Below are positions 2,948-55,700 of a DNA stretch of 64,000 bases, piece after piece (positions within the stretch are counted from its first letter, which is position 1; the number at the start of each line of letters is the position of its first letter). Source of the stretch: Candidatus Omnitrophota bacterium (lineage in GTDB: Bacteria; Omnitrophota; Gorgyraeia; JAZDFF01); the NCBI GenBank assembly GCA_043808095.1, contig JAZDFF010000001.1, positions 1,628 to 65,627 on the forward strand, in the 5' to 3' direction. Both the position numbers and the translations under genes were made by a program. Below the pieces are notes generated by a model. It saw only the letters and a list, made by a program, of their open reading frames with translations. It searched no databases and was not told where the DNA came from.

Positions 2948-2975
2948 AATACCTAATAAAAATCATTAGAATATC

Positions 2976-11036: not shown

Positions 11037-11077
11037 TAAACTGTTTTCTGGTTACTCCCGAGCGAAGCGAGGGGAAC

Positions 11078-14574: not shown

Positions 14575-15578
14575 AGCCATCTGTATTTGTTGCTTCATTA
14601 TTTTTGGCAAGCTGGGCAATTTTTAATATTGATAGGTATTTTACTTTGCGCTGCGCTAATGCCAGAAATGAGCTTATAAATTTCAAAAATACCGCAGGAG
14701 AGTTAAGAGAACGTGTTTCTAAAATTGATGAAAAAAATCTAAAACTTCACCAAGAGGTAGAACGGATATTTTCTCTTTACGAATTTACCAAAGAAGTTAC
14801 CAAACATTTGGCTGAGGATGAATTAACGGGTGTCTTTAGAGAAATAGGGCACAAATACATAAGTTTTAAAGATATTAGATTAATTGAACAGTCGCAATTA
14901 AACGAAGAAGAATTATCCAGCTATCAAAAATTTAGCCTAAAGATAAAAAATGAGGCACTGGGGTATCTAGCGGTCTCAGGCCTTGGGGATACCGAGAAAG
15001 AAAGTTTTGGTATACTCTCTAGCCAGTTTGCCCTTGCCTTAAAAAGGGCCAGGCTCTATAAAGAGATTCAGAAGCTCGCCATAACAGATAGCTTGACTGC
15101 TGTCTACACACGCTGGTATTTTTTAGAGAGGGCAGAAGAGGAATTGCATCGCTCGTTAAAATTTGAGCTTAGTTTTTCGTTTTTGATGCTCGATATTGAC
15201 CACTTTAAAGACTGCAATGATAAATTCGGGCATTTGGTAGGAGACGCGGTTTTAGAGGAATTGTCCGAGGTCCTTAAGGGATGTATTCGCCAGATAGATT
15301 TATTGGGAAGGTTCGGCGGTGAGGAATTTTGCATATTATTACCTGAGACAAATAAAAAGAGTGCTTATCAGGCGGCTGAACGTATCCGCCAGACTGTCAT
15401 AGATTCCGAGATACGCGCCTATGATGAAAAGATAAAATTAACAGTAAGTATTGGCATTGCTACTTTTTCTGAAGATGCGGATAAACTTAAGGAATTAATT
15501 GACAGGTCTGATTGGGCATTATATCGCGCAAAACAAACGGGAAGAAACCGGATTTGTCTCTATGGGGTCTATAAATAA
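14562..15578 (+). CDS. Membrane-anchored GGDEF diguanylate cyclase (second of a tandem pair)
   Basis: N-terminal TM helix, coiled coil, GGDEF domain with RFGGEEF. The start overlaps the previous GGDEF gene by 13 nt. Confidence 0.8.
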   Translation: MLLLEPSVFVASLFLASWAIFNIDRYFTLRCANARNELINFKNTAGELRERVSKIDEKNLKLHQEVERIFSLYEFTKEVTKHLAEDELTGVFREIGHKYISFKDIRLIEQSQLNEEELSSYQKFSLKIKNEALGYLAVSGLGDTEKESFGILSSQFALALKRARLYKEIQKLAITDSLTAVYTRWYFLERAEEELHRSLKFELSFSFLMLDIDHFKDCNDKFGHLVGDAVLEELSEVLKGCIRQIDLLGRFGGEEFCILLPETNKKSAYQAAERIRQTVIDSEIRAYDEKIKLTVSIGIATFSEDADKLKELIDRSDWALYRAKQTGRNRICLYGVYK

Positions 15579-22217: not shown

Positions 22218-22467
22218 ATGAAGCCCAAACTTACGGAGCAATAGCGAACGTAAGTTTGCTGGCTGAATTTACCCCCACACCAATTGGCTTATAATTTTAG
22301 GCAGTATTAACAATTGGTGTGGGGGTCCAATTCGCTCGCCACTAATTCTTTGGCGAGCGTCCGCCAAAGTTTTAGTGGAGGACGCATTAACAAAGATGCT
22401 GTTCATAAGAGATTGACTTATGTCGTCATTCTGACTCCATAAGTCAAGTGTTCATTGGAGGAAATAA

Positions 22468-28326: not shown

Positions 28327-29052
28327 ATGCAGGCAATAATTTTAGCAGGCGGAAAAGGCGAAAGGCTCAAGTCCATTACCAGGGATATTCCAAAACCTAT
28401 TATCCCGCTTGGCGGGAAACCTTTTTGTCTTTATCAGATAGAATTGCTTAAAAAACACGGTGTCAGGGATATCATTTTTAGCATCGGGTATTTGCGGGAA
28501 AAAGTCCAGAGGTTATTGGGTAATGGTAGTGATTTAGGCATAGATATCCACTATGCGATAGAAGATGAGCCATTAGGGACTGCCGGAGCGATAAAGAATT
28601 CAGCACAGTACCTGCACTCAGATGCTCTTTTTTTGGTTCTAAACGGCGATGTCTTGACTGATATGGATTTGTCTAAATTAATTGAGTTCCACAGATCTAA
28701 AAAATCTTTTGTGACGATTTCCTTAATTGAGGCAAAAGAAAAGAAATCTTATGGCTCAGTCCTGGTTAATAAAAATGGGCGCATAAAATCATTTGCGGAA
28801 AAAGTTGAGTCTTTGCAAAATTCACAGTTTGTGAATGCCGGTATCTACGTATTTGAAAGAAGGGCCCTGGATAAGATTCCTCCTGCCCTAAATTACTCTT
28901 TTGAAAAGGAATTCATCCCACGCCTTGTAAGAAAGAATTTACCTGTTTTTGGTTTTAAGACCTCTTGTTACTGGATAGATATCGGAGAACCATCGCGTTT
29001 TAAACAGGCAGAGAAAGAGATTTCCAGGTTGCACCCTGAGCTTAGAAAATAA
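28327..29052 (+). CDS. Sugar-phosphate nucleotidyltransferase (mannose-1-P guanylyltransferase-like)
   Basis: MQAIILAGGKGERLKSIT...PKPIIPLGGKP motif. Confidence 0.7.
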   Translation: MQAIILAGGKGERLKSITRDIPKPIIPLGGKPFCLYQIELLKKHGVRDIIFSIGYLREKVQRLLGNGSDLGIDIHYAIEDEPLGTAGAIKNSAQYLHSDALFLVLNGDVLTDMDLSKLIEFHRSKKSFVTISLIEAKEKKSYGSVLVNKNGRIKSFAEKVESLQNSQFVNAGIYVFERRALDKIPPALNYSFEKEFIPRLVRKNLPVFGFKTSCYWIDIGEPSRFKQAEKEISRLHPELRK

Positions 29053-29135
29053 GTAATTAATGATTACGGTGATTATTAGAATACGATTACAGCGATAAAA
29101 ACATAAAACTTGAGTTAAACCTTAGTTTAAATTAA

Positions 29136-29741
29136 ATGAGACGACTAAATAAGAAGGCAATAAGTTTAGCCGAATTGGTAATTACTATAGCGATTATGGT
29201 CATCTTGGCAGTTATGGCCCTGATCCGGACCGGCTATAATGACACCTTAAAATTAAATGCCTGCGCCAGAAAGATTGCGGGAGATATTAGGTATGTCCAG
29301 CAGTTGGCAATGACCGAGTCTAAATCCAGTGTAAGTGCGAATCCCTATATTATGGATTTTAATCCTCCTTCTGCGTCTTGGGTTCCTGGCCATCCGAATT
29401 TACCTTTAGGCCAAAGCTATATGGTAGTAAGAAGTGGTCTCGCCGGTTATTTACAAGACCCCTACGCCAAAGAGGATTTAGTAATGGACTTTACAAAACA
29501 AGATACCTGCAAGGGTGTAAATTTTACAAACGTAACTCTTGGAACTTGTGGAACTTGTAAGTCTCTGCGGTTTAGTGACAATCTAGGTACGCCACTTTCG
29601 GCTAATTTAGTGGGATATTTTGGTTCCTGGGCATATGGGACTTATCCTCTAAGCGCAGCACCCCAGATTGCTATTTCTTACAAGGGTAAATTAGTTACAA
29701 TTTACATTACCCCAGAGACAGGCTTGGTGAGGATAGAGTGA
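29136..29741 (+). CDS. Prepilin-like protein with an atypical class-III signal
   Basis: The N-terminus is KKAISLAELVITIAIMVILAV, with A-I-S-L-A-E in place of the usual G-F-T-L-I-E. It has a hydrophobic helix and a Cys pair near the C-terminus. Confidence 0.5.
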   Translation: MRRLNKKAISLAELVITIAIMVILAVMALIRTGYNDTLKLNACARKIAGDIRYVQQLAMTESKSSVSANPYIMDFNPPSASWVPGHPNLPLGQSYMVVRSGLAGYLQDPYAKEDLVMDFTKQDTCKGVNFTNVTLGTCGTCKSLRFSDNLGTPLSANLVGYFGSWAYGTYPLSAAPQIAISYKGKLVTIYITPETGLVRIE

Positions 29742-29810
29742 TGCAATTTTTAAAAAGAAAAATTGCATTGATTACAGCGATTTTTAAAAAAGATTACAGT
29801 GATTAAAGAA

Positions 29811-30150
29811 ATGATTATCCCGAATGATGTTATTCTTTGTAGTGTCTCTTCGGGATCCCGTTCCGAATATAGCAAATGCTTTTGTATAGTTTCGGGATCC
29901 CGACGATTCGCTTCTATGAATACCTTCATTCGGGAAAGAATAACCTAAAAAGTTACTACATTCGGGACAGTGATAGAACCATATTTAATGTCCAATATCC
30001 AATAAATACCAATAATACCAATGAATGTCCAATTGCCAATTGGATAGTTGGGATTTGGGATTTTATTGGCACTTCGACTTTGCTCAGTGCCAATGGTGAG
30101 CATAGTCGAACCATTGGAGTTTGGTAGTTATTGGTAAATATTGGGATTTA
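29811..30150. repeat. Left direct repeat flanking the pilin/PilX-like locus: a composite of two MITE-like units plus a CCAAT/ATTGG-word palindrome
   Basis: 29811-29860 is identical to 37321-37380, and 29977-30062 is identical to 37430-37524. The left copy carries an extra 46-bp insert (30062-30108) from the 'acttcgactttgctcag' repeat family. Confidence 0.7.
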
Positions 30151-30287
30151 AAGAGTCATTGGGACATTGTCCCGCGTAGCGGGATTCCGCTTTCGTTTTA
30201 ATTAGATAGGCGGGAAAGAATTAGGAATTTATTCGGCATTAGTCATTAGGAATTCAACATTAACTTTTATTTTAAGAGGTGTGATAA

Positions 30288-30791
30288 ATGAAGATAGATA
30301 AAAGGACAAAAGGTGTAACCCTTATCGAATTAGTCATAGTAATCTTGGTTTTGAGTATTGCCAGTCTTGGCCTGCTTTCCTTATTCAACCAGGTCATCCG
30401 CTCAACAGTTAAACAGGAGTCTATGACCGTGGCAACCCAGTTGGCCAGAGGCCTGATGGAGAAATTAATGTTGGTGGATTTCTATGAATTAAGGAAACCT
30501 TTTTCCGATGGAGGTTACGATGACAGATTTTGTGATTTAACTACGTGTAGTGATAGTGATTGGACGACGGATTGGAAGAGTCGCGGTTATTGCTACAATA
30601 TAGAGGTCAAATCCATTAATCCTGATTATATCAATGCCCCTACTAACAATGATTTGGCTGATAGCGCTGCGGTAGTAGATTTCTCTAATTTCTTAAGAGT
30701 CAGGGTAAGGGTCTGGAGACAAGGGGCTACTGGCGCAAGACTCTGCCCGGATATAGATTTATATACGATTGTGACACCTTATAAGTATTGA
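30288..30791 (+). CDS. Type IV pilin/pseudopilin-like protein
   Basis: Canonical prepilin motif KGVTLIELVIVILVLSI (G|VTLIE). Confidence 0.7.
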   Translation: MKIDKRTKGVTLIELVIVILVLSIASLGLLSLFNQVIRSTVKQESMTVATQLARGLMEKLMLVDFYELRKPFSDGGYDDRFCDLTTCSDSDWTTDWKSRGYCYNIEVKSINPDYINAPTNNDLADSAAVVDFSNFLRVRVRVWRQGATGARLCPDIDLYTIVTPYKY

Positions 30792-30845
30792 TAATATAAA
30801 TGATAAATTTCCAATATCCAATAATACCAATGAATGTCCAATTTC

Positions 30846-30921
30846 TCCCGAATACAGTTACCCAAAGAAGTTATGCTTCGGGATCCCGAAGTTATACTTC
30901 GCAGAGATACTACATTCGGGA
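30846..30921. repeat. MITE-like palindromic element (copy)
   Basis: TCCCGAATA...GCTTCGGGATCCCGAAGT...CATTCGGGA. Confidence 0.6.
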
Positions 30922-31014
30922 CAATGACCAATTAGATAATTGAGATTTGGGATTTCATTGGGATTTGGTAGTTATTGGTAATTATTGGGATTTAAGTGTA
31001 AAGGGGTTGTCCAA

Positions 31015-31623
31015 ATGAGAAAAGGGTTTACCTTAATTGAGGCGGTCATTGTGATATTTATCTTAGGGATTGTAGTTGCGGGTCTTATTCCTATCCTTTT
31101 CAAGGGCATTGAAATATCTACTTCTGGGATGTCTAGCCAAGAAGACTTAGCCAAAGCCAGGATTGCGCTGGAGAGGATGGTTAGTGAGATAAGGGATTCA
31201 GAATGTATTTGTTCCTGTCTTTGCTCGGGCGGTTCTTGTAATAGCAGTCTTATGTATATTCCAACTTCTAAAGATAAAAGAATTTATTTCGCGACACCAA
31301 GCGCTGACCCTAAAAATAAGATATTAAGAAACGTCTATACTATTACCAGCCCTGATCCCACAACTTGCGTAACACTTTGTAATTCCTCTTGGAATTCAAC
31401 TGCTACATCTTCGCAGGCACTCATTGATTCTCTTGCCTCAATGAGTCCTGGTAATACCTGTATTAGTTGTAGGGCATTTAACGAGAATGGAGTTGAACAA
31501 ACCTCTTATTTGGGCGTTATTAATAACAGCCGTTTATTAAAAATTAAATTTATCTTACATAAGAAATCCGGCGGAGAACTTCCCTTTGAGACACAGGTGG
31601 TGTTGAGGAAGAGGGTACCATAA
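31015..31623 (+). CDS. Type IV pilin/pseudopilin-like protein
   Basis: MRKGFTLIEAVIVIFILGIV prepilin motif; Cys-rich C-terminus. Start at ATG 31015 with an upstream AAAGGGG. Confidence 0.7.
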   Translation: MRKGFTLIEAVIVIFILGIVVAGLIPILFKGIEISTSGMSSQEDLAKARIALERMVSEIRDSECICSCLCSGGSCNSSLMYIPTSKDKRIYFATPSADPKNKILRNVYTITSPDPTTCVTLCNSSWNSTATSSQALIDSLASMSPGNTCISCRAFNENGVEQTSYLGVINNSRLLKIKFILHKKSGGELPFETQVVLRKRVP

Positions 31624-31698
31624 GGAATGAACGTCCAATATCCAATAAATACCAATAATACCAATGAATTTCCAATGACCAATAACCAATAAATACCA

Positions 31699-32052
31699 AT
31701 GGCCAAGGAATATGATATCAAAGACAGGACTTTTAGTTTTGCACAAAGGGTTTTAGAAATAGTAGGTATGTTGCCCAAGATAGTAGAATGCGATGTAATT
31801 CGTAAACAACTTACTGAGGCAGGGACTTCCGTAGGCGCAAACGTTGAAGAAGCAGACGGTGCCTTAAGCAAAAAGGATTTTATAAATAAGATGGGTATAG
31901 CCAGAAGAGAGGCTAAAGAGAGCAGATATTGGTTGAGGCTTATTTCAGGAAAGTATATTAATGAGGAGAAGATTGCCAAAGATATAATTGAAGCAAATGA
32001 ACTCAAAAATATCTTAAGTTCAATTATTGAGAATACTAATAAATCCAAATAA
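31699..32052 (+). CDS. Four-helix-bundle protein of the 23S rRNA-intervening-sequence / Avd family
   Basis: 117 aa. The pattern LxxxGxxxxxxE...SxxDFxxKxxIARREAKESRYWLRL matches this family, to which the DGR accessory protein Avd belongs. Confidence 0.6.
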   Translation: MAKEYDIKDRTFSFAQRVLEIVGMLPKIVECDVIRKQLTEAGTSVGANVEEADGALSKKDFINKMGIARREAKESRYWLRLISGKYINEEKIAKDIIEANELKNILSSIIENTNKSK

Positions 32053-32131
32053 TGGCTTATAAATTGGAAATTGGTATTTGGGATTTTATTGGAGGTTGGT
32101 ATTTATTGGTAATTATTGGGATTTAAAGAGT

Positions 32132-33766
32132 ATGAATCTTTTCACCAACAAGACTGGTTTTGCCTTATTTATCTCTATCTTCATCATCCTGGCTTTCTCA
32201 ACCATAGCGCTTCTTTGCTTTAATCTTCTGACTGTCCAGGACGATGCCGCCATCCGCAATCTCTATTCCATAAGGGCCTATTACCTGGCAGAGGCAGCCA
32301 GACAGCTTTGGTTAGAATACTATGTGCCTTGGGGGAGTGATTTTTGCAATGACGGCTCTGATGAAAAGCCAAACGAATTCCCTGATAATATTACCCGTAC
32401 CATAAACGGCGGAACACTTAATATTCATTATGTAGCTAGACAAGCACCTGAGCAGGCTACCACTGTGCAATTTTCCGGTTCGGTCCCTTTAAGTGGTCAG
32501 CAAATCAGCCGCAGCTTTACCCAGGATTTTTCTTTTCCCTTGGGTTCAGCTGCCTTTAATCTCAGGAGGGATTTGCAGAATTTTGTGTTGGCTACCTTTA
32601 ATGCTGGTTCAAGTAGTTGTTTTTATCTGGGAGGTGATACCGGACTTAGCGGGCAGAGCCTTCCACTATATTTCTTTGCTAAGGCGTGTAGTGATTGTGC
32701 TGGGTCACAATGCAACGAAGAATCCGACCCTCAGTATATTTTTCGTAGTTTTGGGAATGTCTATATGGGAAATTTTGATGTAGTACTTAGAATTGCACAG
32801 ATTGGAGATTCATCTAATCAGCGAAACCTTTATATGAATATACCCAGCGGTTCTAAAAAATTACATATATTTGAATGTTCAAGAATAAATGGCAATCTTT
32901 ATCGTCGCAATACTGACTTAAATTGTTTCCCAATTATTAATTCCGGTTGGCAGGGTATGTGCTATGTTTACCAGCTCGCAGGGGGGCCTTGTCCTAGCTG
33001 TAACAGTTGTTGTAAAGATTCCAATTGCGATTCTTCTTGTTTCGTTTCTGACGCTGGCTGGCCAGCTTCACCACCACAACCTATCCCCAGCAAACCCGTT
33101 ATTGATAATAGTTATTTCAATCAGGAGCTTAAAATTGCATTTCAGAGCGGAAGCACTTCTGGTTCTCCCCTTTCTGGTGACTTAGGAAAGAGGAATCGCT
33201 ATTTTAATCTGGCTAATTTGAATATTGATGGTGATATCAGCGGCGGGCCTGCTAATATTGTAACTACGGGCAGGATACTTATTGCTGATAATGTGAAGAT
33301 AGGCGAGAAAATAACTCTTATATGCGGGGATGATGTTTCCAATACTGACCCAAATGAAGAATATATTTATTTAGGCTCAGATAACGTAATAGGCGGCACC
33401 TATTCTGGCGGCCAGATTTCAGGCGGAGGAAGCCTTATATATAGTCGTAATGACAGTACTAGCCTTACATACGCTCCGCTTTATATTCCTGACGGTGCAA
33501 GGATAAAGGCAAGCATATTATCGCCAGGATTAGTGTGGATAAATAGCCAGGATAGTTGGAATATCTGGGGCACAGTTTATTCTGGAAGCGTTATATCAAT
33601 CACAGGAGGTCAGGGAGAACTTCGTGGTAGGATTTTTAGCGACGCCCCTGCACCGGATCCTTCAAAAGATGGGCCCTTTAATATGACCCTTTATGAAGAA
33701 TCAAATCTTCCTTTAAGGCTTAAAGGCCTTTATAATATCTCCACCAGCAACTGGCGGGAGCAGTAG
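32132..33766 (+). CDS. PilX-like large secreted protein, paralog 1 (pilin-type N-terminal anchor, Cys-rich variable body)
   Basis: N-terminus KTGFALFISIFIILAFSTIALLCFNLL is a PilX_N-like helix. C-terminus ...RLKGLYNISTSNWREQ is shared with the paralogs at 33951 and 35679. Confidence 0.65.
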   Translation: MNLFTNKTGFALFISIFIILAFSTIALLCFNLLTVQDDAAIRNLYSIRAYYLAEAARQLWLEYYVPWGSDFCNDGSDEKPNEFPDNITRTINGGTLNIHYVARQAPEQATTVQFSGSVPLSGQQISRSFTQDFSFPLGSAAFNLRRDLQNFVLATFNAGSSSCFYLGGDTGLSGQSLPLYFFAKACSDCAGSQCNEESDPQYIFRSFGNVYMGNFDVVLRIAQIGDSSNQRNLYMNIPSGSKKLHIFECSRINGNLYRRNTDLNCFPIINSGWQGMCYVYQLAGGPCPSCNSCCKDSNCDSSCFVSDAGWPASPPQPIPSKPVIDNSYFNQELKIAFQSGSTSGSPLSGDLGKRNRYFNLANLNIDGDISGGPANIVTTGRILIADNVKIGEKITLICGDDVSNTDPNEEYIYLGSDNVIGGTYSGGQISGGGSLIYSRNDSTSLTYAPLYIPDGARIKASILSPGLVWINSQDSWNIWGTVYSGSVISITGGQGELRGRIFSDAPAPDPSKDGPFNMTLYEESNLPLRLKGLYNISTSNWREQ

Positions 33767-33950
33767 AAAAGGATTGGGACAATTAAGTAGTAGTTTCGTC
33801 TTAAAAGGTTATAGGGTTGCGGTTACGTATCGTATGAAAAGTTATCGTTGGTCGTTTATCGTATAAATACGACAGACAAAACTGATACACGATGGACGAT
33901 ACGTGTCCGAGGCCGAAACCGATAAAACGTCAGACAAGGTTTTATTAATC

Positions 33951-35501
33951 ATGCATCTACCTATCAATAAAAGTGGCTTTGCTCTTTTTATCTCTATCTT
34001 CATCATCCTGGCATTTTCCACCATCGCCCTGCTTTGCTTTAATCTTTTAACTGTCCAGGACGATGCCGCTATCCGCAATCTCTACTCCATCCGTGCCTAT
34101 TACCTGGCAGAGGCAGCCAGGCAGCTGTGGTTAGAATACTATCCAAGCTGGGGAAATGATTTTACCAACACGACCCAGTTTCCCGATGGCACCACCCGCA
34201 CTTTAAATGGCGGACAATTTAGTTTCAGCTATATCAGTCGCAACAGCCGTTTGGCCAGCTTGAACTTTACCGGAAGCATCCCCCTGGGCACAACTACGGT
34301 TACCAAAGGTTTTAGGCAGGATTTTAGCGATTCATCCTCAGCGCTCTTTAGAGACTTAAATAATTTTGTCTTAGGGGTGTTTAATGATGATGAGGTCTAT
34401 GCCTTGGGTGGGGATAATCCTGCAGAAGGACGTTATTATTATACATACGGTTGCGCATGCGCACAAGGCTGTAGCACGACACTTAATCAAAGATACATCT
34501 TTCGTGCATTTGGTAATGTTTATCTCGATGGCCCTTCGTCTTCTCCTAATGGGAGACATCTATTTAAGTTAGGCGAGATTGGTTATCCTAATGATCCTAG
34601 TAAACCCAGAGAGCTCTATATAACAGGTAAAGGAATAGGTTCGGGGGTGCTTATTAGTGAATGTACAAGGATATACGGTAATCTTAGGATAACTAATGCC
34701 TACCTTCATCATCATCAACTTGAATCAGGTGGTTTTAGTAAGTGTAGATTAAATGTAGTTAGCAGTTCACCTTATTATTGTGTAAATCCTCTAGATCCCC
34801 CTAATGTTTGTGATGGTAGTTGCTATAGTGGTGCTGCTGGCACTTTACCTCAACCCGCAAAACCCGATATAAACACCTATTTTACGCAAGAACTGCAATT
34901 GGCCCAAAATTGTTCCAGCGGTGGTTATTGCTGGAATGGCAATGGTATTGCTGGTCCAACAACTTTAACTAAAAATGTTTATTATAGCGGCTCTGATGAT
35001 TTTTATTTAACGGGAGATATTAACGTCATTTTTCCGATAAATATCGTTATTAACTTAACCAATGCAACTAAATCAGTAAGGATCCAATCTGGAGCCAAGG
35101 TTTCAGGAAAGATAACCATTATCTCTTCTGGTAAGATTGTTACATATGGTGATGAAATAAGGGTCGGCGATATAAATTTAACCTGCCCTAGCTCTCTTAT
35201 TTATTCACATTCAGATGCTAATCCTGCCATAGAAATCAATGCCTCTCCTGAAATCAAGGCAAATATCTTATCTCGGGGTTCGGTTGATTTAGCAGAACAA
35301 CAGACTCCCAAGATTTGGGGCACAATCTATGCCTGGGAGATTGATGCCTATCAAGCTGGTCAGGCCAATATCTATGGCCCAGTATTCGTTGACCAGACAG
35401 AAATAGATAAACCCCTTAATCTTACCTTAAACGAGGCCCCGCTTTCCTTTAGAATCAGGGGCCTGTATAATATAGCCTCCAGCAACTGGCAGGAGCAGTA
35501 G
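33951..35501 (+). CDS. PilX-like large secreted protein, paralog 2
   Basis: Same N-terminal ~65 aa and C-terminal GLYNIASSNWQEQ as paralog 1; the middle is unrelated. Confidence 0.65.
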   Translation: MHLPINKSGFALFISIFIILAFSTIALLCFNLLTVQDDAAIRNLYSIRAYYLAEAARQLWLEYYPSWGNDFTNTTQFPDGTTRTLNGGQFSFSYISRNSRLASLNFTGSIPLGTTTVTKGFRQDFSDSSSALFRDLNNFVLGVFNDDEVYALGGDNPAEGRYYYTYGCACAQGCSTTLNQRYIFRAFGNVYLDGPSSSPNGRHLFKLGEIGYPNDPSKPRELYITGKGIGSGVLISECTRIYGNLRITNAYLHHHQLESGGFSKCRLNVVSSSPYYCVNPLDPPNVCDGSCYSGAAGTLPQPAKPDINTYFTQELQLAQNCSSGGYCWNGNGIAGPTTLTKNVYYSGSDDFYLTGDINVIFPINIVINLTNATKSVRIQSGAKVSGKITIISSGKIVTYGDEIRVGDINLTCPSSLIYSHSDANPAIEINASPEIKANILSRGSVDLAEQQTPKIWGTIYAWEIDAYQAGQANIYGPVFVDQTEIDKPLNLTLNEAPLSFRIRGLYNIASSNWQEQ

Positions 35502-35678
35502 AAAATGATTGTAGAGATTATAAATCAAAATGCAAAATTCAGGTTTAGGGGTTAGTAGGATTAAGTAGGGAGTAGTAAGGGTAAGAAAGGGATAAATTAT
35601 AAAAACCCATCCTAACCCCTTCTAACCCTTTCTATCCCTTCCTAACCCTTAAATCTTTGATTTTTATCTTACAAAAGT

Positions 35679-37295
35679 ATGAATCTATCCACTCACAAAG
35701 GTTTTGCCTTATTTATCTCTATCTTCATCATCCTGGCATTTTCAACCATTGCCTTACTTTGTTTTAATCTCTTGACGGTCCAGGATGATGCAGCCATCCG
35801 TAATCTCTACTCCATCCGTGCATATTACCTGGCAGAGGCAGCCAGGCAACTCTGGTTGGAATACTATGCACCCTGGGGCGCAGATTTTACTATTAGTAGT
35901 CAATTCCCTTCAGTAACCAAGACCTTAGCAGTAAATCAATTCAGTATCAATTATTCTCCTTATGGCCAGGATGCCGGCCCACTTACTCAGCAGAGAAAAG
36001 CTCGAGTCCATTTTCAAGGAATAATTCTATCTATCCCTATCACTAGAACATTTTTTCTGGACATAGATGCTGAACCCAAGACTGCCTTAACCAGGACCTG
36101 CGCCTCTGACAAAAGAGACTGTCTGAGCGGTGATTTAAAGAATTTTGTTTTGAATTATAATGGCAGTTCTGATCTCAACTTGGCAGGAACATTAGATTAT
36201 TGTTGTTGTACTGGTTTTAATGGTAGTAGTTGTTGTGGTACTTATGGTTGTCCTTTTGGAGATTGTGTTGGTTATCCGCCTTTTAGAGGCCCTGTCGTCA
36301 CTGGGGATGTCTATTCGAATAGAAATGTTTATTTCAAATCCGGAGAGATTAACGGAAATCTTTATAGCAGTTCCAATATTCAGGTCCGTGAATGTGCAAG
36401 GATAATAAATGGTTCGGTATATCACGGCGGAGCGCTTAATTGTTGTCGTGTTTCTGGGTTAGTCCCGCCTCTTGTTTCTTGTAAATGTGATAATAGTTAT
36501 ACCTGTAACAATTATTGCTGCGGCGGTGGCCCTTGTCTAACTGATGGTGGCGCTTCCGGCCCTAAGCCGGCTCCTTCAAAGCCAGCGATTGATACTACAT
36601 ATTTTGATAAACAGATTGAGTGTGCCCAAACTTATGGCGAAGTGCCATCTGGTGGGACTAAAACTATCTCTAGTGATGTGAATTTAGGAACTACAGGAGA
36701 TATCTATGTTAATGGAAAGATAGTCATTAACTGCACCGGTGACTGCACCGGTGGGAGTACAAATATCTCTACTACTGGTAGGTCGTGTAATATAGTGGCT
36801 ACTGGTGATATTGAGGTCACGAGGTCACATATTTCTGAGCGGATAAACCTAATCAGTGGAGGCAGGATTTTGACGAATGGCGATCCAACCTATGGTCCAA
36901 CAGTAATCGGCGGTGATTATTCTGCCGGCCCTCCTGAGCAGGTCACGGGCGTGGGTTGTCTTCTCTATGCACGGGCACAAACCAATCCTATAGCAATTAT
37001 TAGAGATTCTATGGTTAAGGCAAGAATATTGACACCAGCATCGGGTTCAGTAAGCATAATAAGCGGAAGTAATGACTGCGCAGGAAAGATCTGGGGTATA
37101 GTCTATACAAAGACCACTGATCTATCGGATACACGTAAATGTCCGAGTATTGTTGGCAGTATATTTACAGACAGTCTCTCTTCAACAATGCAATTTGGAC
37201 CTACCGAAGATGGTACTGGCAATTCCAATCTTTTTCTTCCTCTGAGGCTTAGAGGCCTTTATAATATCTCTACCAACAACTGGCAGGAGCAGTGA
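35679..37295 (+). CDS. PilX-like large secreted protein, paralog 3
   Basis: Same N- and C-terminal modules as paralogs 1 and 2; very Cys-rich variable middle (CCCTGFNGSSCCGTYGCPFGDC...). Confidence 0.65.
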   Translation: MNLSTHKGFALFISIFIILAFSTIALLCFNLLTVQDDAAIRNLYSIRAYYLAEAARQLWLEYYAPWGADFTISSQFPSVTKTLAVNQFSINYSPYGQDAGPLTQQRKARVHFQGIILSIPITRTFFLDIDAEPKTALTRTCASDKRDCLSGDLKNFVLNYNGSSDLNLAGTLDYCCCTGFNGSSCCGTYGCPFGDCVGYPPFRGPVVTGDVYSNRNVYFKSGEINGNLYSSSNIQVRECARIINGSVYHGGALNCCRVSGLVPPLVSCKCDNSYTCNNYCCGGGPCLTDGGASGPKPAPSKPAIDTTYFDKQIECAQTYGEVPSGGTKTISSDVNLGTTGDIYVNGKIVINCTGDCTGGSTNISTTGRSCNIVATGDIEVTRSHISERINLISGGRILTNGDPTYGPTVIGGDYSAGPPEQVTGVGCLLYARAQTNPIAIIRDSMVKARILTPASGSVSIISGSNDCAGKIWGIVYTKTTDLSDTRKCPSIVGSIFTDSLSSTMQFGPTEDGTGNSNLFLPLRLRGLYNISTNNWQEQ

Positions 37296-37320
37296 AAAAA
37301 TGATTCCAGCGATTAAGAAG

Positions 37321-37570
37321 ATGATTATCCCGAATGATGTTATTCTTTGTAGTGTCTCTTCGGGATCCCGATGTAATTCTTAAGAAGTTACTACATTCGG
37401 GACAGCGATAAAAGATACGATTACAGCAAGAGAACCATATTTAATATCCAATGTCCAATATCCAATAAATACCAATAATACCAATGAATGTCCAATTGCC
37501 AATTGGATAGTTGGGATTTGGAGAATTTATTGGAGTTTGGTATTTATTGGTAATTATTGGGATTTAAAGA
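37321..37570. repeat. Right direct repeat flanking the pilin/PilX-like locus
   Basis: See the 29811-30150 entry; ends in the ...GGGATTTAAAGAGT-ATG junction that also precedes paralog 1. Confidence 0.7.
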
Positions 37571-37572
37571 GT

Positions 37573-37650
37573 ATGAATCTTTTCACCAACAAGACTGGTT
37601 TTGCCCTTTTTATCTCTATCTTCATCATCCCGGTCTTTTTGGTTATCGCT
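37573..37650 (+). pseudogene. Truncated fourth copy of the PilX-like N-terminal module (promoter-proximal fragment or silent cassette)
   Basis: ATGAATCTTTTCACCAACAAGACTGGTTTTGCC... is nearly identical to the 5' end of paralog 1 (32132). Homology is lost after ~25 codons; the frame runs into the trpB start. Confidence 0.5.
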
Positions 37651-37712
37651 TTGTTCTCTCCGAGAATGAATAAATTGACAGTTCGTCAGATTATCTTTAT
37701 AATAAACCCATT

Positions 37713-38900
37713 ATGACAAAAAAATTACCCGATCATCACGGATATTTCGGTCAGTTCGGGGGGAAGTTTGTGCCTGAGACCCTGATGTATGCGCTCTCTG
37801 AATTAGGGGAGGCTTATAAGGCAGTTAGAAAAGACCCCGCCTTTAGGAGAGAACTAAGATATTATCTTCAGATTTACGCCGGAAGGCCAACACCTTTGTA
37901 TCCTGCCAGGAATTTAAGCAGATATTTAGGAAATCTAAAGGTCTGTCTAAAACGCGAAGACCTTCTGCATACCGGGGCCCATAAAATAAATAATGCCTTA
38001 GGTCAGGTGCTTTTAGCCCGGCGGATGAAAAAGACGCGCATTATTGCCGAGACCGGCGCCGGCCAGCACGGCGTTGCCACTGCCACAGTAGCGGCCTTGT
38101 TTGGCCTGGAGTGCGACATCTATATGGGGCTTGAAGATATCAAAAGACAGCACCAAAATGTCTTCAGGATGAAACTTCTGGGTGCGAGAGTTATCCCCGT
38201 TGATAGCGGCTCTAAGACTTTAAAAGATGCCTGTTCAGAGGCAATCCGGGATTGGGTGACTAATGTCAAGGATACCTATTATCTTATCGGTTCGGTTATC
38301 GGGCCGCATCCTTATCCGGTAATGGTGCGCGATTTTCAGACGGTGATCGGCGAGGAATCCAGAAGACAGATACTGGAGTTAGAGGCCAGGCTTCCTGATT
38401 ATCTAGTAGCCTGTGTCGGAGGCGGAAGTAATGCCATGGGTTTATTTTACCCTTTCTTTAAGGATAAAAAGGTGAAATTTATCGGGGTGGAGGCGGCAGG
38501 AAAAGGCCTCACTAGCGGTCTTCATTCGGCGAGTTTGGTTAAGGGAAGGATCGGGGTCTTACACGGCAGCAAGAGTTCGCTTCTACAGGATAAATACGGC
38601 CAGGTAAATATTGCCCATTCTATTGCCGCTGGCCTTGATTATCCTGGGGTGGGGCCGGAACATACCTATTATAAAAAGATAAAGCGAGCCGAATATGTAG
38701 CCGTAGGCGATCGGCAGGCCTTAGAGGGCCTGAGGCTCTTATCAGAAACTGAGGGAATCATCCCGGCCTTGGAGCCAAGCCATGCCATTTATTATTTAAA
38801 AATCTTAGCCAAGAAAATTAAGACCAGGGCCCTGGTTATTCTTTGTTTGTCAGGCAGAGGGGACAAAGACCTGGATATCGTTATGAAACATGGTTGCTAA
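37713..38900 (+). CDS. trpB: Tryptophan synthase beta chain
   Basis: [18 protein letters not shown] (PLP lysine), GSNAMG. Confidence 0.95.
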
Positions 38901-39001
38901 AATTACTAAGGTTACTAAAAGTTACTATAAGTTACAATATTCTAGCAACCTCATTTAACATCAGATAACCTCATAGAACCTCATTTAACCTTTTTGAAGT
39001 G

Positions 39002-39784
39002 ATGACACGAATCGATAAAAAGTTTAGAGATTTAAGAAGGCAGCATAAAAAGGCCTTTATTGCCTTTATCACTGCAGGAGACCCTGACCTTAATACCACT
39101 TTTAAATTAGCCCTGGAACTTGAAAAATCCGGGGTGGATATCATAGAGTTGGGGGTGCCATTTTCCGATCCTCTGGCTGACGGACCGGTTATACAGGCCG
39201 CTTCAGAGCGCAGCCTTAAAAAAGGAACTACCTTAGTTGGTGTAATTAATCTTATAAAGAGGATAAGAAGAGAGAGTAACATTCCTCTTGTGATAATGAG
39301 CTATTACAATCCTATTCTCAGTATGGGTGAGGAAAGGTTTACAATAGAAGCGCATCTGGCCGGTTTAGACGGACTGATTATCCCGGATTTACCTCCTGAA
39401 GAGTCGTCTTCCTTAATCTCTTTCTGCCGAAGCCATAATTTAAATAATATTTTATTTTTGTCCCCCACAAGTCCGATTTCACGGATTAAATCAATCACCA
39501 GGCTTACTAGCGGCTTTATCTATTATGTTTCTTTAACCGGAGTTACCGGCACCAGGGATAGATTGGCAGGACAGCTAGAGAACAGAATCAGGCTGATAAA
39601 GCGTTTTAGCAAAAAACCCGTGTGCGTCGGCTTCGGGATATCTAATAGGAATCAAGTGCAGAAAATTTCTAGATTTTCTGACGGCGTAATTATAGGAAGC
39701 GCGATTGTCAAAAAGATCCAGGATAACGTCGGTAATAAATATTTGGTAACCAAGGTCGGTAAGTTTGTAAGAAGCTTGATGTGA
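39002..39784 (+). CDS. trpA: Tryptophan synthase alpha chain
   Basis: ELGVPFSDPLADGPVIQ and GFGIS motifs. ATG at 39002; the track's 38999 is a GTG. Confidence 0.9.
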   Translation: MTRIDKKFRDLRRQHKKAFIAFITAGDPDLNTTFKLALELEKSGVDIIELGVPFSDPLADGPVIQAASERSLKKGTTLVGVINLIKRIRRESNIPLVIMSYYNPILSMGEERFTIEAHLAGLDGLIIPDLPPEESSSLISFCRSHNLNNILFLSPTSPISRIKSITRLTSGFIYYVSLTGVTGTRDRLAGQLENRIRLIKRFSKKPVCVGFGISNRNQVQKISRFSDGVIIGSAIVKKIQDNVGNKYLVTKVGKFVRSLM

Positions 39785-39929
39785 ATTAATTTAATTTTCA
39801 CTGAAAGAATCTAATGATGCGCAGATAATTACAGATAATCTGTGCCCATCTGTGAAAAACTAAATTTAAACTGCAATCTGTGCTTAAGCCGCAGGCTGAT
39901 CCGCCTGCGGCGGAAATCTGTGATATAAA

Positions 39930-41189
39930 ATGTATAATAAGATTAATTTGGAAAATAAATTACGGATTGTTACTTATCCTATGGAGGGATTAAGGTCAGT
40001 TTCCGTAGGTATCTGGATCGGAGTCGGCGGTCGGTTTGAAAATGCCTCTAACAAAGGCATATCGCATTTCCTAGAACACCTGGTTTTTAAAGGCTCTAGA
40101 AAATACTCCTGCGAAGAAATAAAACAGGGAATCGAGGGCTCGGGAGGAGCTTTAAACGGATTCACCTCAGAGGAATTTACCTGTTATCTGGTGAAGGTCT
40201 TAGACAAAAATATCCTTAAGGCGATTGATATCTTAGCGGATATGGTGGTAAATCCGCTGATTCCCTCCGTTGAAGTTGAAAAAGAACGCGGGGTAATTAT
40301 TGAAGAGATAAAGATGTATAAAGATCTACCCCAGCATTATGTCCATGAACTTTTAGACGGCTTGCTTTGGCCGAATCACCCCTTGGGAATGAACCTCGCC
40401 GGGACGGTTGATAGCGTATCCGGTATTTCCCGGGAAGACCTTTTTAAATTTCAATCCTTTTGGTATCCTGTTTCTAATATAGTGGTTGTGATATGTGGTG
40501 CCTTTCATGAAGCCAAGACAATAGAAAAAATCAAGGCCACTTTTAGAAAATTAGCCTCTGGTAAAAAAACGCAGTTTCTTAAATTTAGCGCAAAACAAAA
40601 TAGCCCTCGTTTTACAACCCTCAATAAAAAAACCGAACAAACTCACCTTGCCATGGGTTATCCCAGCCTAAAGAGAGATCATCCCAAAAAGTATGTCTTA
40701 AGTTTATTAAATACAATACTAGGCGCTAATATGTCCAGTCGCTTGTTTAAAGAGATACGCGAAAAAAGAGGCCTGGCTTATGAAATCGGCACAAGCTTAA
40801 AACGGCACGCTGATAGCGGCGCATTTGTCGTCCATGCTGGAATCGACAACAGAAATGTAATCCAGACCATCGATTTAATCCTAAAGGAATTTGATAAGAT
40901 AAAAAAGTTTTTGCCGACTAAGAGTGAATTTATGCGGGCCAAGGAGTTTTATTGCGGCCAGCTGATCATCGCCCTTGAAGACCCTCTTAATCAGATGCTT
41001 ATGTTGGGAGAAGACGTCCTGTCAAAGGACGAGATTCATTCTCCCCAAGAAACATTAAAAGAGATTGAAAAAATTAAGATTGAAGAAATATCGGAATTGG
41101 CCAAAGATATTTTTGACCCCAGGCATATTAATGTTGCCTTAATCGGGCCGGACAGCGGTATCGAGTCAAAGTTTAAAAAAATAATCTAA
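39930..41189 (+). CDS. M16-family zinc peptidase (insulinase/PqqL-like)
   Basis: Inverted zinc motif HFLEHLVFKGS (HxxEH) plus a downstream E. Confidence 0.85.
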   Translation: MYNKINLENKLRIVTYPMEGLRSVSVGIWIGVGGRFENASNKGISHFLEHLVFKGSRKYSCEEIKQGIEGSGGALNGFTSEEFTCYLVKVLDKNILKAIDILADMVVNPLIPSVEVEKERGVIIEEIKMYKDLPQHYVHELLDGLLWPNHPLGMNLAGTVDSVSGISREDLFKFQSFWYPVSNIVVVICGAFHEAKTIEKIKATFRKLASGKKTQFLKFSAKQNSPRFTTLNKKTEQTHLAMGYPSLKRDHPKKYVLSLLNTILGANMSSRLFKEIREKRGLAYEIGTSLKRHADSGAFVVHAGIDNRNVIQTIDLILKEFDKIKKFLPTKSEFMRAKEFYCGQLIIALEDPLNQMLMLGEDVLSKDEIHSPQETLKEIEKIKIEEISELAKDIFDPRHINVALIGPDSGIESKFKKII

Positions 41190-42631: not shown

Positions 42632-43007
42632 GCTTCATAACTAAAATAAAAAATAAATTATAGGGCGTCATAAAAATTCCGCCCTTGATTGCAGAGGTTA
42701 CAAAATCTGATTATGCGGATTTCCGCCTTTGGCGAAAAATATTCCGAAGAAACAATCTTTGTAATCATTAGGCTAAAACGATACTTCGACTTTGTCCTGC
42801 TTCGACAGGCTCAGTATTCGCCCTGAGCGAGCGAAATCCCTCGACTGCGCTCGGGATGGTTCGAGGGGTGGTGAGCCCTTCGATTACGCTCAGGGCAAAT
42901 GGTGAGCAAAGTCGAACCAGAGCAAGTCGAACCACGAGTCGAAAGGCTCAGTATTCGTCCTGAGTGAAATCGAAGGACGAATTTTATGACAGCCTAAATA
43001 AATTATT

Positions 43008-45175: not shown

Positions 45176-45255
45176 TATATGAATCACGAATAAACACAAA
45201 TTTCACACTAATTAACACGAATATTAAAATTTACAAATTCGTGTCTATTCGTGTG

Positions 45256-45329
45256 TCCCGAATGAAGCAATTGATTGTGTTTAGCTTCGGGATCCCGAAG
45301 TGATTCTTAAGAAGTCACTACATTCGGGA
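45256..45329. repeat. MITE-like palindromic element (copy), upstream of recJ
   Basis: TCCCGAATG...CTTCGGGATCCCGAAG...CATTCGGGA. Confidence 0.6.
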
Positions 45330-45345
45330 TAATTCGTGAGAATTA

Positions 45346-52593: not shown

Positions 52594-52687
52594 TTCCCGC
52601 TTTGCGGGATCCCGCTGGAAATTTTCTATTGTGCGGGATAATCTCTGTAATCAAGGGCGAAACGATTTTTGTGAAGCCCTATTTAAG
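52594..52687 (+). promoter_or_regulatory. Conserved ~90-nt leader element (copy 2) upstream of the 1956-aa surface protein
   Basis: ~90% identical to 20213-20302, with the same GCGGGATCCCGC palindrome and AGGGC...GCCCT hairpin just before the RBS. Confidence 0.45.
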
Positions 52688-52700
52688 GGAGGATAAAAAG

Positions 52701-55700
52701 ATGATGGGAATAAAAAAATTAATAAGTGTATTAATTTTAGGTTGCGTATTAATATTATTGAATAATCCTTCCCTTTTAGCAGAAGAGGGTCAATGGAAGT
52801 CCTTGGATGAAGGAATTCCTTCGCTAACTGCTCCCCAGGCTTCAGTACTTAAGTCTACTGATTCAACTGTCCATTTAAGGATACAGGTCCCTGGTTTTGA
52901 AGTTAAGCAAAATGAAGAACAGGGCGTAGTCTATCAACAAATCCGTCTTCCTCAGGCAAGCTTGCTTCCTGAAATAGGCAAACCGATGCTTCCCCGGCTT
53001 ATCAGGATTATCGCCGTGCCTAAAGAATGTAATCTTTCCGATATCAAGTTAGAATTTTCTCCTACCAAAATCCAGACCTTGGAAAACTACTTAGTTTATC
53101 CTCTGCCTGATTTAGACGATAAAAAAGATATCTTTGTTAAAGACGAACTTTTCTATGAAAAAGACGTTTTTTATCCCGAACAGGTGGTAAAGGTTGAATC
53201 TATAGGCCTGATGCGCGACCAGAAAATTCTTAAGATTCAAATCTGTCCTATACAATATAATCCTAAGACAAAACAACTCAAGGTATATAAAGACCTGATA
53301 ATCAAGGTAAACTTTCCTTCTGGTATAGTGAGTTCATCTACGGGAGTAGGACCTCTTGAACATGTGGCTAACCTGGCTCTATTAAATTATGAATCCAGGC
53401 CTCAAGAAGAGCCAGAAGAAGGCGGTAAATCAGGGAATGTTATCTATCCCACAAATTTGAAAACCGGTACAAACAATGCTGATTATATTATCATTGCTGC
53501 TCCTCTGCTTTGGCAGGACAGGGATACCAACGGATTGGTTACTTTTGCTAACCATCGCGCTACCTATAATAACTGGAATGTGGCAGTGGTAAATAGAGAT
53601 GATATCTATAATCAATTTAGCGGCACCACTGATGATGACAAGATTAAGGCCTTTATTACCTATGCCTATAATAATGTCGCTAACCATTGGCATGCGCCTC
53701 GTATGGGCGATGACCATACTGGATTTGTGCTTTTAATGGGAGACGCGCGTTCAGCTGCCGGTACAGGCCATCTACCCACACATATCTCTATTCTTGTTGA
53801 CCCTATTAAATATGAACGTATTGCTACTGACCACTGGTATGCCTGTATAAATGATGATGACGGCAGCGGTATGGTTGATGATAATGACCGCATGGCTGAT
53901 CTTTTTATTGGCCGGTTTTGCACAGGAGGCGATGACTGGGCCCAGAGAGTTCTGGATAAGACCCGCTTCTTTGATATTGCCGGAATTCCTAGCCCCAATT
54001 GGAAAGGAAAGATTGGCCTTTGGTGCGGCTATGGAAGCCAAGATGCCAACAGGATCAGCGAGCTTAGAGATACAATCTATCCTCATATTGAACAGCTGGC
54101 CGGCACTAATTCTTTTTTTGAGGTAAGCGATAAGGAATTTAGTACAGATCATACTAATTTAAATGATTTTAAGGATGACTTTAAGAACTATTTTAATTTA
54201 GGCAGAGGGATTGTTATTGACAATAGTCATGGTGACTACAATCTGTGGCAGTGGTCCAAAAATTTGTCTACGTTTGTAAACTTCGCTACTGATGATGTAG
54301 ACACTCTGAATAATGGTAGCAAAACTCCTCTGGTTCTGAGTTTTTCTTGTAGCACAGCGAGGTTTGACTATATCGGCAAAGGAGGTCAAGGCGTTGATCC
54401 CAATTTTGAGTCTTTAGCTGAAAGGTTTACCGAGATAGCTAACAATAAAGGTGCGGTAGCCTTTTGGGGGGCAACACGCGATACTAATTACCATGGAGAT
54501 TTTGAGTATACTGATACTATGATTCCGGCAGTCTTAGAATACGGCCTAAGCAATCTGGGTCAGGCTATTCTTTATACCAAACTCACCTGCTCTACAGTTT
54601 ATAATGGGGATATCATATTTAATCTGGTGGGTGATCCGGGTCTAGGGCTCTATGGCACTGTCCCAGGTTTTATCACTGACCTGCAGATTACCAGTGATAA
54701 TATCCAGACCGCTTCGGTTGGTTCTGATATTAGAATAACCGCTAAAGTAGAGAATATGACTGTTGTAGCAGCAACAAACGTCTGGGTGCGCTTCTATGAC
54801 GGCGACCCTACCAATGGTGGCATTCAGATAGGCTCTGACCAATTAATTAGCTCAATTCCCAGGTTTGGCAGTCAGACCGCAGAGGTCCTCTGGATTAATC
54901 CCTCCCAGACAGCGCATACCATATATGTGGTGGTTGATCCTGATAATACCATCACTGAATTTAATGAGGAAAATAATAAGGCCTCTACGGTAGTTCTCCT
55001 GGGATTTTCAGTCACTCCGGGTTATTATATTGACTCTTCGGCAATAGTAGCGGATGTAAATAATGACGGTGATAAGGAGATAATCGTAGGCTGTAATGAC
55101 TACAAAATTTATGTTTGGCAATCAAACGCTCAAGCATTACCCGGCTGGCCTATTTCAACAGGTGGTTCTGTGGAATCTTCTCCTGCTGTAGCTGATCTAG
55201 ACGGAGATGGAGATTTGGAGATAATTTTCAGTAGTAATAATGGTTATGTCTATGCCTGGCACCATAATGATGGACCTGATGCTGGCGATGAAGCAGATCC
55301 GGTTGCGGGTTGGCCAATTTCTATAGGCGGTCAAGTCCGTGCCACTCCAGTTGTTTTTGACTTAGACAATGATGGTGATTTAGAGATTATTGCTGCCTCA
55401 ACCAATGGCAAGGTCTATGCCTGGCATCACAATGGCCAGCCTTTTGCTTCTTGGCCAGGAGGTTATTTACAGGCAGCAGGAGCAATTTATTCTTCACCCG
55501 CAGTGGGTGATATTGATGGACAAGGCAGTGTAGAGATAGTAGTAGGCAGCGACGATGGCAAGGTCTATGCCTGGCATGCTCATAATGGCCAGGCCTTGAC
55601 TAATTGGCCAGTTGTAACCAACCCAACCTTACCCATACGTTCTTCACCCAGTTTAGCGGATTTAGACCGCGACGGTTTTCTCGATGTGGTAGTTGGTTCC

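Follow-up and report, generated by a model that had tools for sequence, protein, structure and literature searches.

Three tandem pilins of predicted ComZ-like architecture with one identical N-terminal helix in a probable minor-pilin operon of a Candidatus Omnitrophota bacterium

Minor pilins and pseudopilins of the GspK/PilX class cap the GspI-J-K or PilV-W-X tip complex. Several sets of tip components can occur in one bacterium, as in Myxococcus xanthus with its three minor-pilin/PilY1 clusters and in Neisseria with PilC1 and PilC2. Several core minor-pilin complexes are also described for cyanobacteria (bioRxiv 10.64898/2026.02.12.705559). Another large pilin-like protein is ComZ of Thermus thermophilus (PDB 6qvi; Salleh et al. 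2019, PMC6561018), whose domain relatives are GspK and an ice-binding protein and whose solenoid interrupts the pilin fold between its last two strands (PMC6561018). ComZ has been argued to sit at the pilus tip and was shown to bind PilA2 and DNA, and comZ is encoded alongside pilA1-pilA4 (PMC6561018). In this study we analysed a stretch of 64,000 nucleotides (hereafter the window; positions 1,628 to 65,627 of contig JAZDFF010000001.1, assembly GCA_043808095.1), which belongs to a contig of 159,674 bp in a metagenome-assembled genome (MAG) of Candidatus Omnitrophota, and in particular a pilin locus in which three small minor-pilin genes, A, B and C, are followed by three tandem paralogous genes, K1, K2 and K3. 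Omnitrophota are uncultured, often ultra-small and suspected to be host-dependent. The locus is probably a minor-pilin operon, for the tip or priming complex of a type IV filament system, and it encodes a set of paralogous putative tip proteins and not a new mechanism of programmed variation.

The genes K1 (32132-33766, 544 aa), K2 (33951-35501, 516 aa from its ATG) and K3 (35679-37295, 538 aa with 26 Cys) are annotated as hypothetical proteins V1674_00170, V1674_00175 and V1674_00180, and like all genes of the pilin locus they lie on the + strand. In the NCBI annotation K2 has 532 aa and starts at GTG 33903. A preliminary description of this DNA had listed three tandem genes of 538-544 aa; their number and tandem order stand, and the lengths become 516-544 aa with K2 being shorter when read from its ATG. 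The leader of the K proteins, ...NKTG/FALFISIF... (the slash precedes position +1), has Gly-1, Ile at +5 and no Glu5, and it is followed by a long hydrophobic alpha-1 helix, which is a trait of the GspK/PilX class. At E<=0.1 no match of K1-K3 to Pfam PilX_N or to NCBIfam models was found, the sole exception among the Pfam and NCBIfam models being a weak match of K2 to DUF7305 (E 0.013). Because the K proteins lack Glu5, are encoded after three Glu5-bearing prepilin genes and have a modelled domain resembling GspK, we assign them to the pilus-tip class in the PilX/GspK position and infer a location at the tip. The likeness to GspK and PilX thus lies in the Gly-1 leader without Glu5 and in the last position after three Glu5-bearing minor pilins, whereas the window proteins differ in having no PilX_N or GspK match, in carrying a predicted beta-solenoid where the inserted domain of GspK is alpha-helical, and in being about twice the size.

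The K proteins belong to a family for which there is no Pfam or NCBIfam model. Word-indexed homologue searches, using either a single query or a profile of 20 sequences, returned the three paralogues only. The family emerged from an exhaustive profile search that covered 1.84 billion representative proteins, with 71 clusters reaching E<=1e-3 and 21 reaching E<=1e-10. Members are mostly 400-620 aa long, and all those with a source name come from Omnitrophota MAGs. PilX_N was matched by one of 20 family members (E 1.8e-4). In the family alignment the conserved features are the N-terminal helix, a PxKPxIDTTYY motif, solenoid-like repeats of the type GRNIYVNGNVTI...GPGNIVATG...IGERIxLIA and a PLxIKGLY C-terminal tail, and between them lie indel-rich, Cys-rich stretches. 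The core solenoid motifs and the C-tail are kept across the family.

A model of K1 obtained with AlphaFold from a 20-sequence alignment had a pLDDT (predicted local distance difference test) of 73 and a predicted template-modelling score (pTM) of 0.76; an earlier model from a 3-sequence alignment was unusable (pLDDT 42.6). The model consists of an alpha-1 helix (residues 7-67), a four-stranded sheet (87-134), a beta-solenoid (about 200-506) and a final strand (537-543), with low-confidence loops at 169-201 and 266-311 that coincide with Cys clusters. In a Foldseek search with the K1 model, ComZ was the only match at E<=1e-3, and GspK was a structural match of the modelled pilin domain. The domain relatives of K1 are the same two, GspK and the ice-binding protein, as reported for ComZ. 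The predicted fold, a pilin domain with a large inserted beta-solenoid, is thus of the ComZ type.

The resemblance to ComZ extends to a length of around 500 aa, to a hydrophobic N-terminal helix without Glu5, to a GspK-like pilin domain combined with a large beta-solenoid resembling DUF3494 ice-binding proteins, and to a position of the K genes next to small minor-pilin genes, both in the window and in the relatives L001, L003 and L009. The K proteins differ from ComZ in that there is no detectable sequence similarity, with 11-13% identity in structural alignments, in having Cys-rich loops and bodies with isoelectric points (pI) of 4.8-6.4, and in occurring as three tandem paralogues that share an identical alpha-1 helix. 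When the 20-member family profile was searched against all PDB sequences at E<=10, 6qvi was not listed. Since this search found no sequence similarity to ComZ, we call the K proteins ComZ-like in their modelled architecture only, and not members of the ComZ sequence family. The acidic to neutral pI of the bodies neither supports nor excludes DNA binding, and a role as DNA receptors is considered here by analogy with ComZ.

Over the 56 residues GFALF...LEYY the three K proteins are 100% identical, with a DNA identity of 86.9-88.7%. Within this constant block each pair of genes differs at 16-20 codons, all of these differences are synonymous and none is nonsynonymous, and the Nei-Gojobori estimates are 0.63-0.85 for synonymous divergence (dS) and about 0.01 for nonsynonymous divergence (dN). 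Where the modelled alpha-1 helix ends, identity drops from 100% to 31-44%. The bodies can be aligned, with 31-37% amino-acid identity over 364-400 aligned columns and many common motifs, and their dN is 0.67-0.81 with dS saturated. At the other end, a tail of the form ...R[LI][KR]GLYNI..NW[RQ]EQ is common to K1-K3, and the K1 and K3 tails are 88% identical over 65 nt. The constant 22-mer of the 5' end occurs exactly four times in the window and the 3' tail exactly three times, with 0 expected by chance in each case. The shared N-terminus and tail of the preliminary description are thereby confirmed, the tail both by the alignment and by its three occurrences, while its statement that the Cys-rich middles cannot be aligned does not hold.

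The N-terminal block is 100% identical within the array compared with 41-50% identity to other family members, whereas for the bodies the corresponding values are 26-32% within the array and 17-31% against homologues in other genomes. The divergence among the bodies of K1-K3 is thus as large as that to homologues from other genomes. Among codons for identical residues, 29-36% differ in the N-terminus compared with 44-54% in the body. The longest exact matches between K copies are 26-38 nt, and no high-identity mosaic segments were found inside the bodies. All three ORFs (open reading frames) are intact, with more than 515 codons each, despite the saturated synonymous divergence.

A further copy of the 5' end of a K gene is found at 37573-37690, as a remnant within a 47-codon ORF (37573-37716, + strand) that overlaps the start of the trpB-like ORF (37713-38900, with its ATG at 37713). 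A tract of 116 nt is 94% identical between 32077-32192 and 37518-37633 and ends abruptly; it spans the upstream arm and the first approximately 61 nt of the remnant, the next approximately 50 nt are loosely similar, and there is no body. As had been noted before, K1 and the remnant ORF have in common an ATTGG-rich upstream element and the ...GGGATTTAAAGAGT-ATG junction. The remnant had also been described as a truncated fourth copy. Its K1-like 5' start agrees with this, but homology to K extends over about 37 codons only and the 3' part is the trpB promoter, a perfect sigma-70 promoter (TTGACA-17-TATAAT, 12/12 match) at 37675-37703 (+ strand), inside the remnant ORF and 10 nt upstream of the trpB ATG.

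Given that the differences in the constant block are all synonymous at a dS of 0.63-0.85, this block appears to have been homogenised long ago and to have been under very strong purifying selection since then. Even with such an old homogenisation, the N-terminus is younger than the bodies. The simplest account is an old gene conversion over the helix-coding 5' block followed by purifying selection, and both the tract shared by K1 and the remnant and the 88% identical tails of K1 and K3 are smaller traces of gene conversion. The locus carries a signature of concerted evolution of the putative docking helix.

The three small genes upstream encode prepilin-type leaders with Glu5 (Pfam N_methyl). 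Minor pilin A (29136-29741, + strand, 201 aa; leader ...KKA/ISLAE) matched N_methyl at E 0.0047 and, below the respective cut-offs, the NCBIfam models XpsH (E 0.0012) and Verru_Chthon cassette protein D (E 0.00084), and is thus weakly GspH/XpsH/FimU-like. Minor pilin B (30288-30791, + strand, 167 aa; leader ...KG/VTLIE) is PilV/GspI-like, with matches to N_methyl (E 2e-6) and, below its cut-off, to NCBIfam PilV (E 9.4e-8). For minor pilin C (31015-31623, + strand, 202 aa from ATG 31015; leader MRKG/FTLIE), which stands in the GspJ/PilW position, the matches were N_methyl (E 3.4e-7) and the NCBIfam prepilin N-terminal domain (E 1.7e-4, above its cut-off). Searches of PDB sequences that started from A and B yielded nothing beyond N-terminal noise. 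The N-terminal matches of the small genes to curated models are weak and of XpsH/GspH, PilV and GspG/J types, and A, B and C stand in the GspH/FimU, GspI/PilV and GspJ/PilW positions, respectively. An AARK[IV]A.DI.Y.Q motif is common to A and the first-position genes of L001, L003 and L009, and a ...VTP..Y C-terminus is common to B and the second-position genes in relatives.

Other Omnitrophota contigs keep a module in which three small prepilins are combined with a single large family member: L003-L005, from one Omnitrophota MAG, and L009 have A-B-C-K once. In L001/L002 the modules are repeated, as [A, B, IVP, K, C], [A, B, K] and [A, B, ...]; in L001 every K gene comes with small-pilin genes of its own, identity between the two K N-termini is only 54%, and the paralogous A and B genes share N-termini. 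In L007 (JGI Ga0315289_10081612, 9-3104) two K genes lie directly in tandem, as in the window, and constant ends with divergent bodies recur: DNA identity is 99-100% over the first 40 aligned codons and 36-85% over the remainder. The pattern marks a clear, recent tract of gene conversion at the 5' end, a process that does occur in this family, unless it stems from misassembly of a short contig. Arrays of K genes without intervening pilin genes (window and L007) each share an N-terminus, and the K genes of L001 with their own pilins do not (54%). A fourth full-length K paralogue, P0005 (V1674_01210, 619 aa), is located on another contig of the same MAG, and its N-terminus is only 50% identical to that of the array. 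Scans of public genome contigs and metagenome contigs revealed no other sequence with the constant N-terminal block and no relatives among GTDB representatives; four metagenome loci were found with a looser motif, and neither collection yielded strain variants.

We propose that A, B and C would form a priming or tip complex that is capped by one of three alternative ComZ-like heads. The constant N-terminal block corresponds to the modelled alpha-1 helix and, by analogy with ComZ, the constant C-tail would be the last element that returns to the pilin domain, so that the constant ends would correspond to a split pilin domain and the variable body to the inserted solenoid. Both ends would have been homogenised by gene conversion in the past and would dock onto one shared A/B/C set and one assembly machinery, and the purifying selection on the N-terminus is proposed to arise because the three heads must dock onto these same partners and machinery. 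The bodies are anciently diverged, predicted solenoid heads with Cys-rich surface loops, and three heads would give three binding specificities, for a surface, a host or DNA, on one pilus chassis. As in the systems with multiple tip sets, paralogous tip components would give several specialisations to one machinery, but the window multiplies the cap gene only, with one core minor-pilin set and an identical alpha-1 helix, whereas L001 repeats whole modules.

Several findings speak against this proposal. No sequence-level similarity of the K proteins of the window to the ComZ, GspK and PilX models was seen, and PilX_N was touched by only one of the 20 family members. The fold of K1 is a prediction from a 20-sequence alignment with low-confidence loops, its global superposition on ComZ is poor (TM 0.22) with the match being domain-wise, and the return of the C-tail to the pilin domain rests on the ComZ analogy. 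The synonymous divergence of the N-terminus is only modestly lower than that of the body (33% compared with 48% of identical-residue codons differ), and this is significant for one pair only. No pilus machinery was found in the window, and the cognate system could be a type IV pilus or one like the type II secretion system. Finally, K1-K3 may be used jointly or redundantly instead of alternatively. The analysis shows the gene content, the pattern of divergence, the predicted fold and the conservation of the module, whereas the tip position, alternative use and differing ligands are part of the proposal. Our confidence in the identity and architecture of the K proteins is good and in their alternative use it is lower.

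Every spacer of the operon folds into a long hairpin (z -2.9 to -5.6), and repeats are present at both sides of the B-to-K3 genes. The upstream repeat block, IG1 (29786-30151), lies between A and B and contains two nested palindromes, TCCCGAATG...TTCGGGATCCCG...CATTCGGGA, and a CCAAT-arm/ATTGG-arm hairpin with a 48-nt insertion. The downstream block, IG5 (37296-37567; fold -47.1 kcal/mol, z -5.58), contains one TCCCGAA-type palindrome and a compact CCAAT/ATTGG hairpin and resembles a gene-less version of 31624-32126. Two segments of IG1 recur identically in IG5, namely 50 bp (29811-29860 and 37321-37370) and 72 bp (29987-30058 and 37450-37521). The preliminary description had given identical blocks of 50 and 86 bp, of which the first is right and the second is 72 bp, and had the repeats bracketing the locus, which leaves out gene A given the position of the upstream repeat. 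Nor are the repeats a bracket made for this locus, both being composites of two types of generic, dispersed intergenic hairpin or palindromic element. The first type is the nested palindrome TCCCGAATG..CTTCGGGATCCCGAAG..CATTCGGGA, which is also present at approximately 10960-11040 and at 45255-45335. The second, with four copies in the locus, is a hairpin whose 5' arm is rich in CCAAT and whose 3' arm is rich in ATTGG; the ATTGG-rich upstream element is this 3' arm.

One of the copies holds a gene in its loop. This element (31624-32126, + strand; CCAAT arm 31624-31701, ATTGG arm 32069-32126; inverted repeats I3, I6 and I18) has a long stem (fold z -3.37) that encloses an ORF for a four-helix-bundle protein (31699-32052, + strand) matching Pfam 23S_rRNA_IVP (E 3.6e-19) and TIGR02436 (E 2.3e-23), and its 3' arm ends 5 nt before the K1 start codon. 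It is the only 23S_rRNA_IVP gene in the window, and gene-less copies of the hairpin are found at 29981-30151, 30796-30995 and 37444-37567. The region 37444-37633 resembles an 'empty-site' form of the region upstream of K1. In another organism (L001/L002; L001 6250-6725) the gene directly upstream of a K gene is likewise an IVP gene, 40% identical in protein and set in a long stem whose sequence is unrelated. In the intervening sequences (IVS) of 23S rRNA of the Leptospira/Salmonella type, an IVP ORF (Pfam PF05635) is located in a long stem-loop. The element of the window is similar in having a four-helix-bundle ORF in the loop of an imperfect stem of about 40-55 bp, and thus resembles an rRNA-IVS-like element within a pilin operon, but it is inside a protein-coding operon and not in rRNA, and gene-less copies of the same hairpin are present in neighbouring spacers. 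A literature search on hairpin-flanked IVP genes gave nothing useful.

The second CCAAT/ATTGG hairpin (30796-30995) has a TCCCGAA-type palindrome in its loop (fold -60.3 kcal/mol, z -3.35). The K1-K2 spacer (33767-33950) forms a long imperfect hairpin with periodic arms of the ATCGT/ACGAT type (-47.6 kcal/mol, z -2.9), and the K2-K3 spacer contains a hairpin of the TTAGGG/CCCTAA type (35544-35651; fold z -4.31) whose minus strand carries a canonical G-quadruplex (G4) motif at 35616-35648, 30 nt before K3. A sister copy of this hairpin lies at 12055-12170, with its G4 motif at 12121-12153 (-), and two of the three canonical G4 motifs (loops <=7) in the 64-kb window lie in such TTAGGG-type elements. 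Long imperfect hairpins whose arms are made up of short motifs repeated roughly every 10 nt are present in many intergenic spacers of the window (10960-11040, 12055-12170, 22329-22388, 33820-33905, 35544-35651, 42877-42976, 45204-45335 and 61350-61493). Their motifs are of the types TTAGGG/CCCTAA, CACGAAT, GATTACAG and ATCGT and the nested palindromes of TCCCGAATG, and they often end just upstream of a start codon. They may serve in RNA processing or stability, act as arrays for protein binding or be MITE-like (miniature inverted-repeat transposable element) repeats. An Rfam scan of 28900-38000 gave nothing meaningful, and apart from the perfect trpB promoter no enrichment was seen in a scan for promoters and terminators.

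Across the window 38 predicted proteins (ORFs of at least 100 aa) were scanned, and a few further ORFs, e.g. 37713-41189, were identified solely by reading translations. None of the 38 was a pilus ATPase, prepilin peptidase, recombinase or reverse transcriptase, and three short prepilins and an Avd-like gene are present, both in agreement with the preliminary description, which had reported no assembly ATPase or prepilin peptidase. The other scanned genes are housekeeping genes (dnaK/dnaJ/grpE, rml genes, trpBA, argS, recJ, pnp and ftsK). In addition, a 1989-aa ORF at 52602-58571 combines a gingipain-type C25 peptidase and its propeptide with CARDB, many FG-GAP repeats and Ig-like domains and is apparently a giant secreted or surface protease, and two neighbouring GGDEF diguanylate cyclase genes, one with a GAF domain, are located at 13267-15578, about 14 kb upstream of the pilin operon.

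Given the structural match of the K pilin domain to GspK, the H-I-J-K-like gene order and the weak N-terminal matches of the small genes to XpsH/GspH, GspJ and GspG, the operon could also encode a pseudopilus (GspH-I-J-K) of the kind found in type II secretion, with the K proteins as alternative pseudopilus caps in secretion. The best whole-protein match of K1 is, however, the competence pilin ComZ of a type IV pilus system, and no gspG, gspD, gspE or gspF gene was found nearby among the scanned proteins; we consider this reading rather unlikely, and pseudopili less likely than pili as the filament. Type IV pilins in general combine a conserved N-terminal helix with variable C-terminal domains, and this pattern also fits a simple tandem duplication in which the copies are redundant or partly decaying, the shared N-terminus is the usual conserved alpha-1 and no logic of alternative tips is involved. 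The decayed remnant of a further K copy and the shared N-termini of the paralogous A and B genes of L001 point in the same direction. Such a duplication does not easily explain that all three ORFs remain intact at more than 515 codons with synonymous sites saturated, that the family keeps its core solenoid motifs and C-tail, that zero nonsynonymous changes occurred in 56 codons across three lineages, which indicates selection on each copy, or that identity drops sharply from 100% to 31-44% at the end of the helix where a gradient is usual. We therefore regard it as unlikely.

The preliminary description had favoured variation driven by recombination as in pilE/pilS of Neisseria; in this model the ends would be recombination anchors and the bodies would be exchanged between copies to vary the tip. 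The locus shares with pilE/pilS the clustering of pilus genes with conserved and variable parts and traces of gene conversion (the 94% tract over 116 nt with its abrupt end, the 88% identity of the K1 and K3 tails over 65 nt and, within the family, the 99-100% DNA identity in the first 40 codons of L007 against 36-85% elsewhere). A G4-forming sequence also lies upstream of the expression locus in pilE/pilS; the bearing of the motif near K3 on this comparison is ambiguous, as it belongs to a dispersed hairpin repeat with a sister copy at 12121-12153. However, there are no silent truncated donors or promoterless body cassettes in the window, K1-K3 being all full-length with their own start codon and anchor, and the sole truncated copy, with its constant 5' end and no variable body, is built the opposite way from a pilS cassette. 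Synonymous divergence has accumulated in the conserved parts (87-89% DNA identity, longest exact run 26-38 nt, dS 0.63-0.85), the whole body differs instead of mini-cassettes and contains no high-identity mosaic segments, and K would be a tip pilin where pilE/pilS concerns the major one. No recombinase was found nearby among the scanned proteins, and no further copies were found in the window or in the public collections scanned with the constant block. The bodies are also as far apart as homologues from different genomes; ancient bodies had been named in the preliminary description itself as contradicting its reading, and we conclude that variation of the pilE/pilS kind is very unlikely. It is slightly less improbable, though still quite unlikely, that the constant 5' block and 3' tail act as recombination anchors by which whole heads or 5' ends are exchanged or converted among expressed tip-pilin genes. 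The same low estimate applies to the idea that the structured spacers, hairpins of which one has a G4 motif and one a four-helix-bundle gene, would promote such head exchange. The recent 5' conversion in L007, the tract shared by K1 and the remnant and the repeated occurrence, in two organisms, of a hairpin-enclosed IVP gene directly before a K gene would fit this anchor role without demonstrating it; if true, it would mean a population-level tip-switching or copy-number-varying system in a host-dependent phylum. An Avd-like 23S_rRNA_IVP gene directly upstream of K1, and another upstream of a K gene in L001, could suggest a diversity-generating retroelement that diversifies the bodies with the Avd-like protein as accessory factor. 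This is effectively refuted by the lack of a reverse transcriptase among the scanned window proteins and the called genes of L001 and of a template/variable repeat pair in the window; in addition, the K C-terminus is conserved and not variable, and the K proteins differ by divergence of the whole gene and not in an adenine-specific manner. An invertible or shufflon-type switch was also considered and rejected, as all copies are on one strand, with no inverted gene segments and no recombinase among the scanned proteins.

A minor-pilin operon with a paralogous set of tip proteins therefore remains our preferred reading. A family that had been unannotated is defined here and assigned, on the basis of the K1 model, as putative ComZ-like modular tip pilins. 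Three very different heads on one identical docking helix are concrete candidates for host, surface or DNA receptors, and the locus would be a case in nature of tips exchanged as modules on a shared set of minor pilins.

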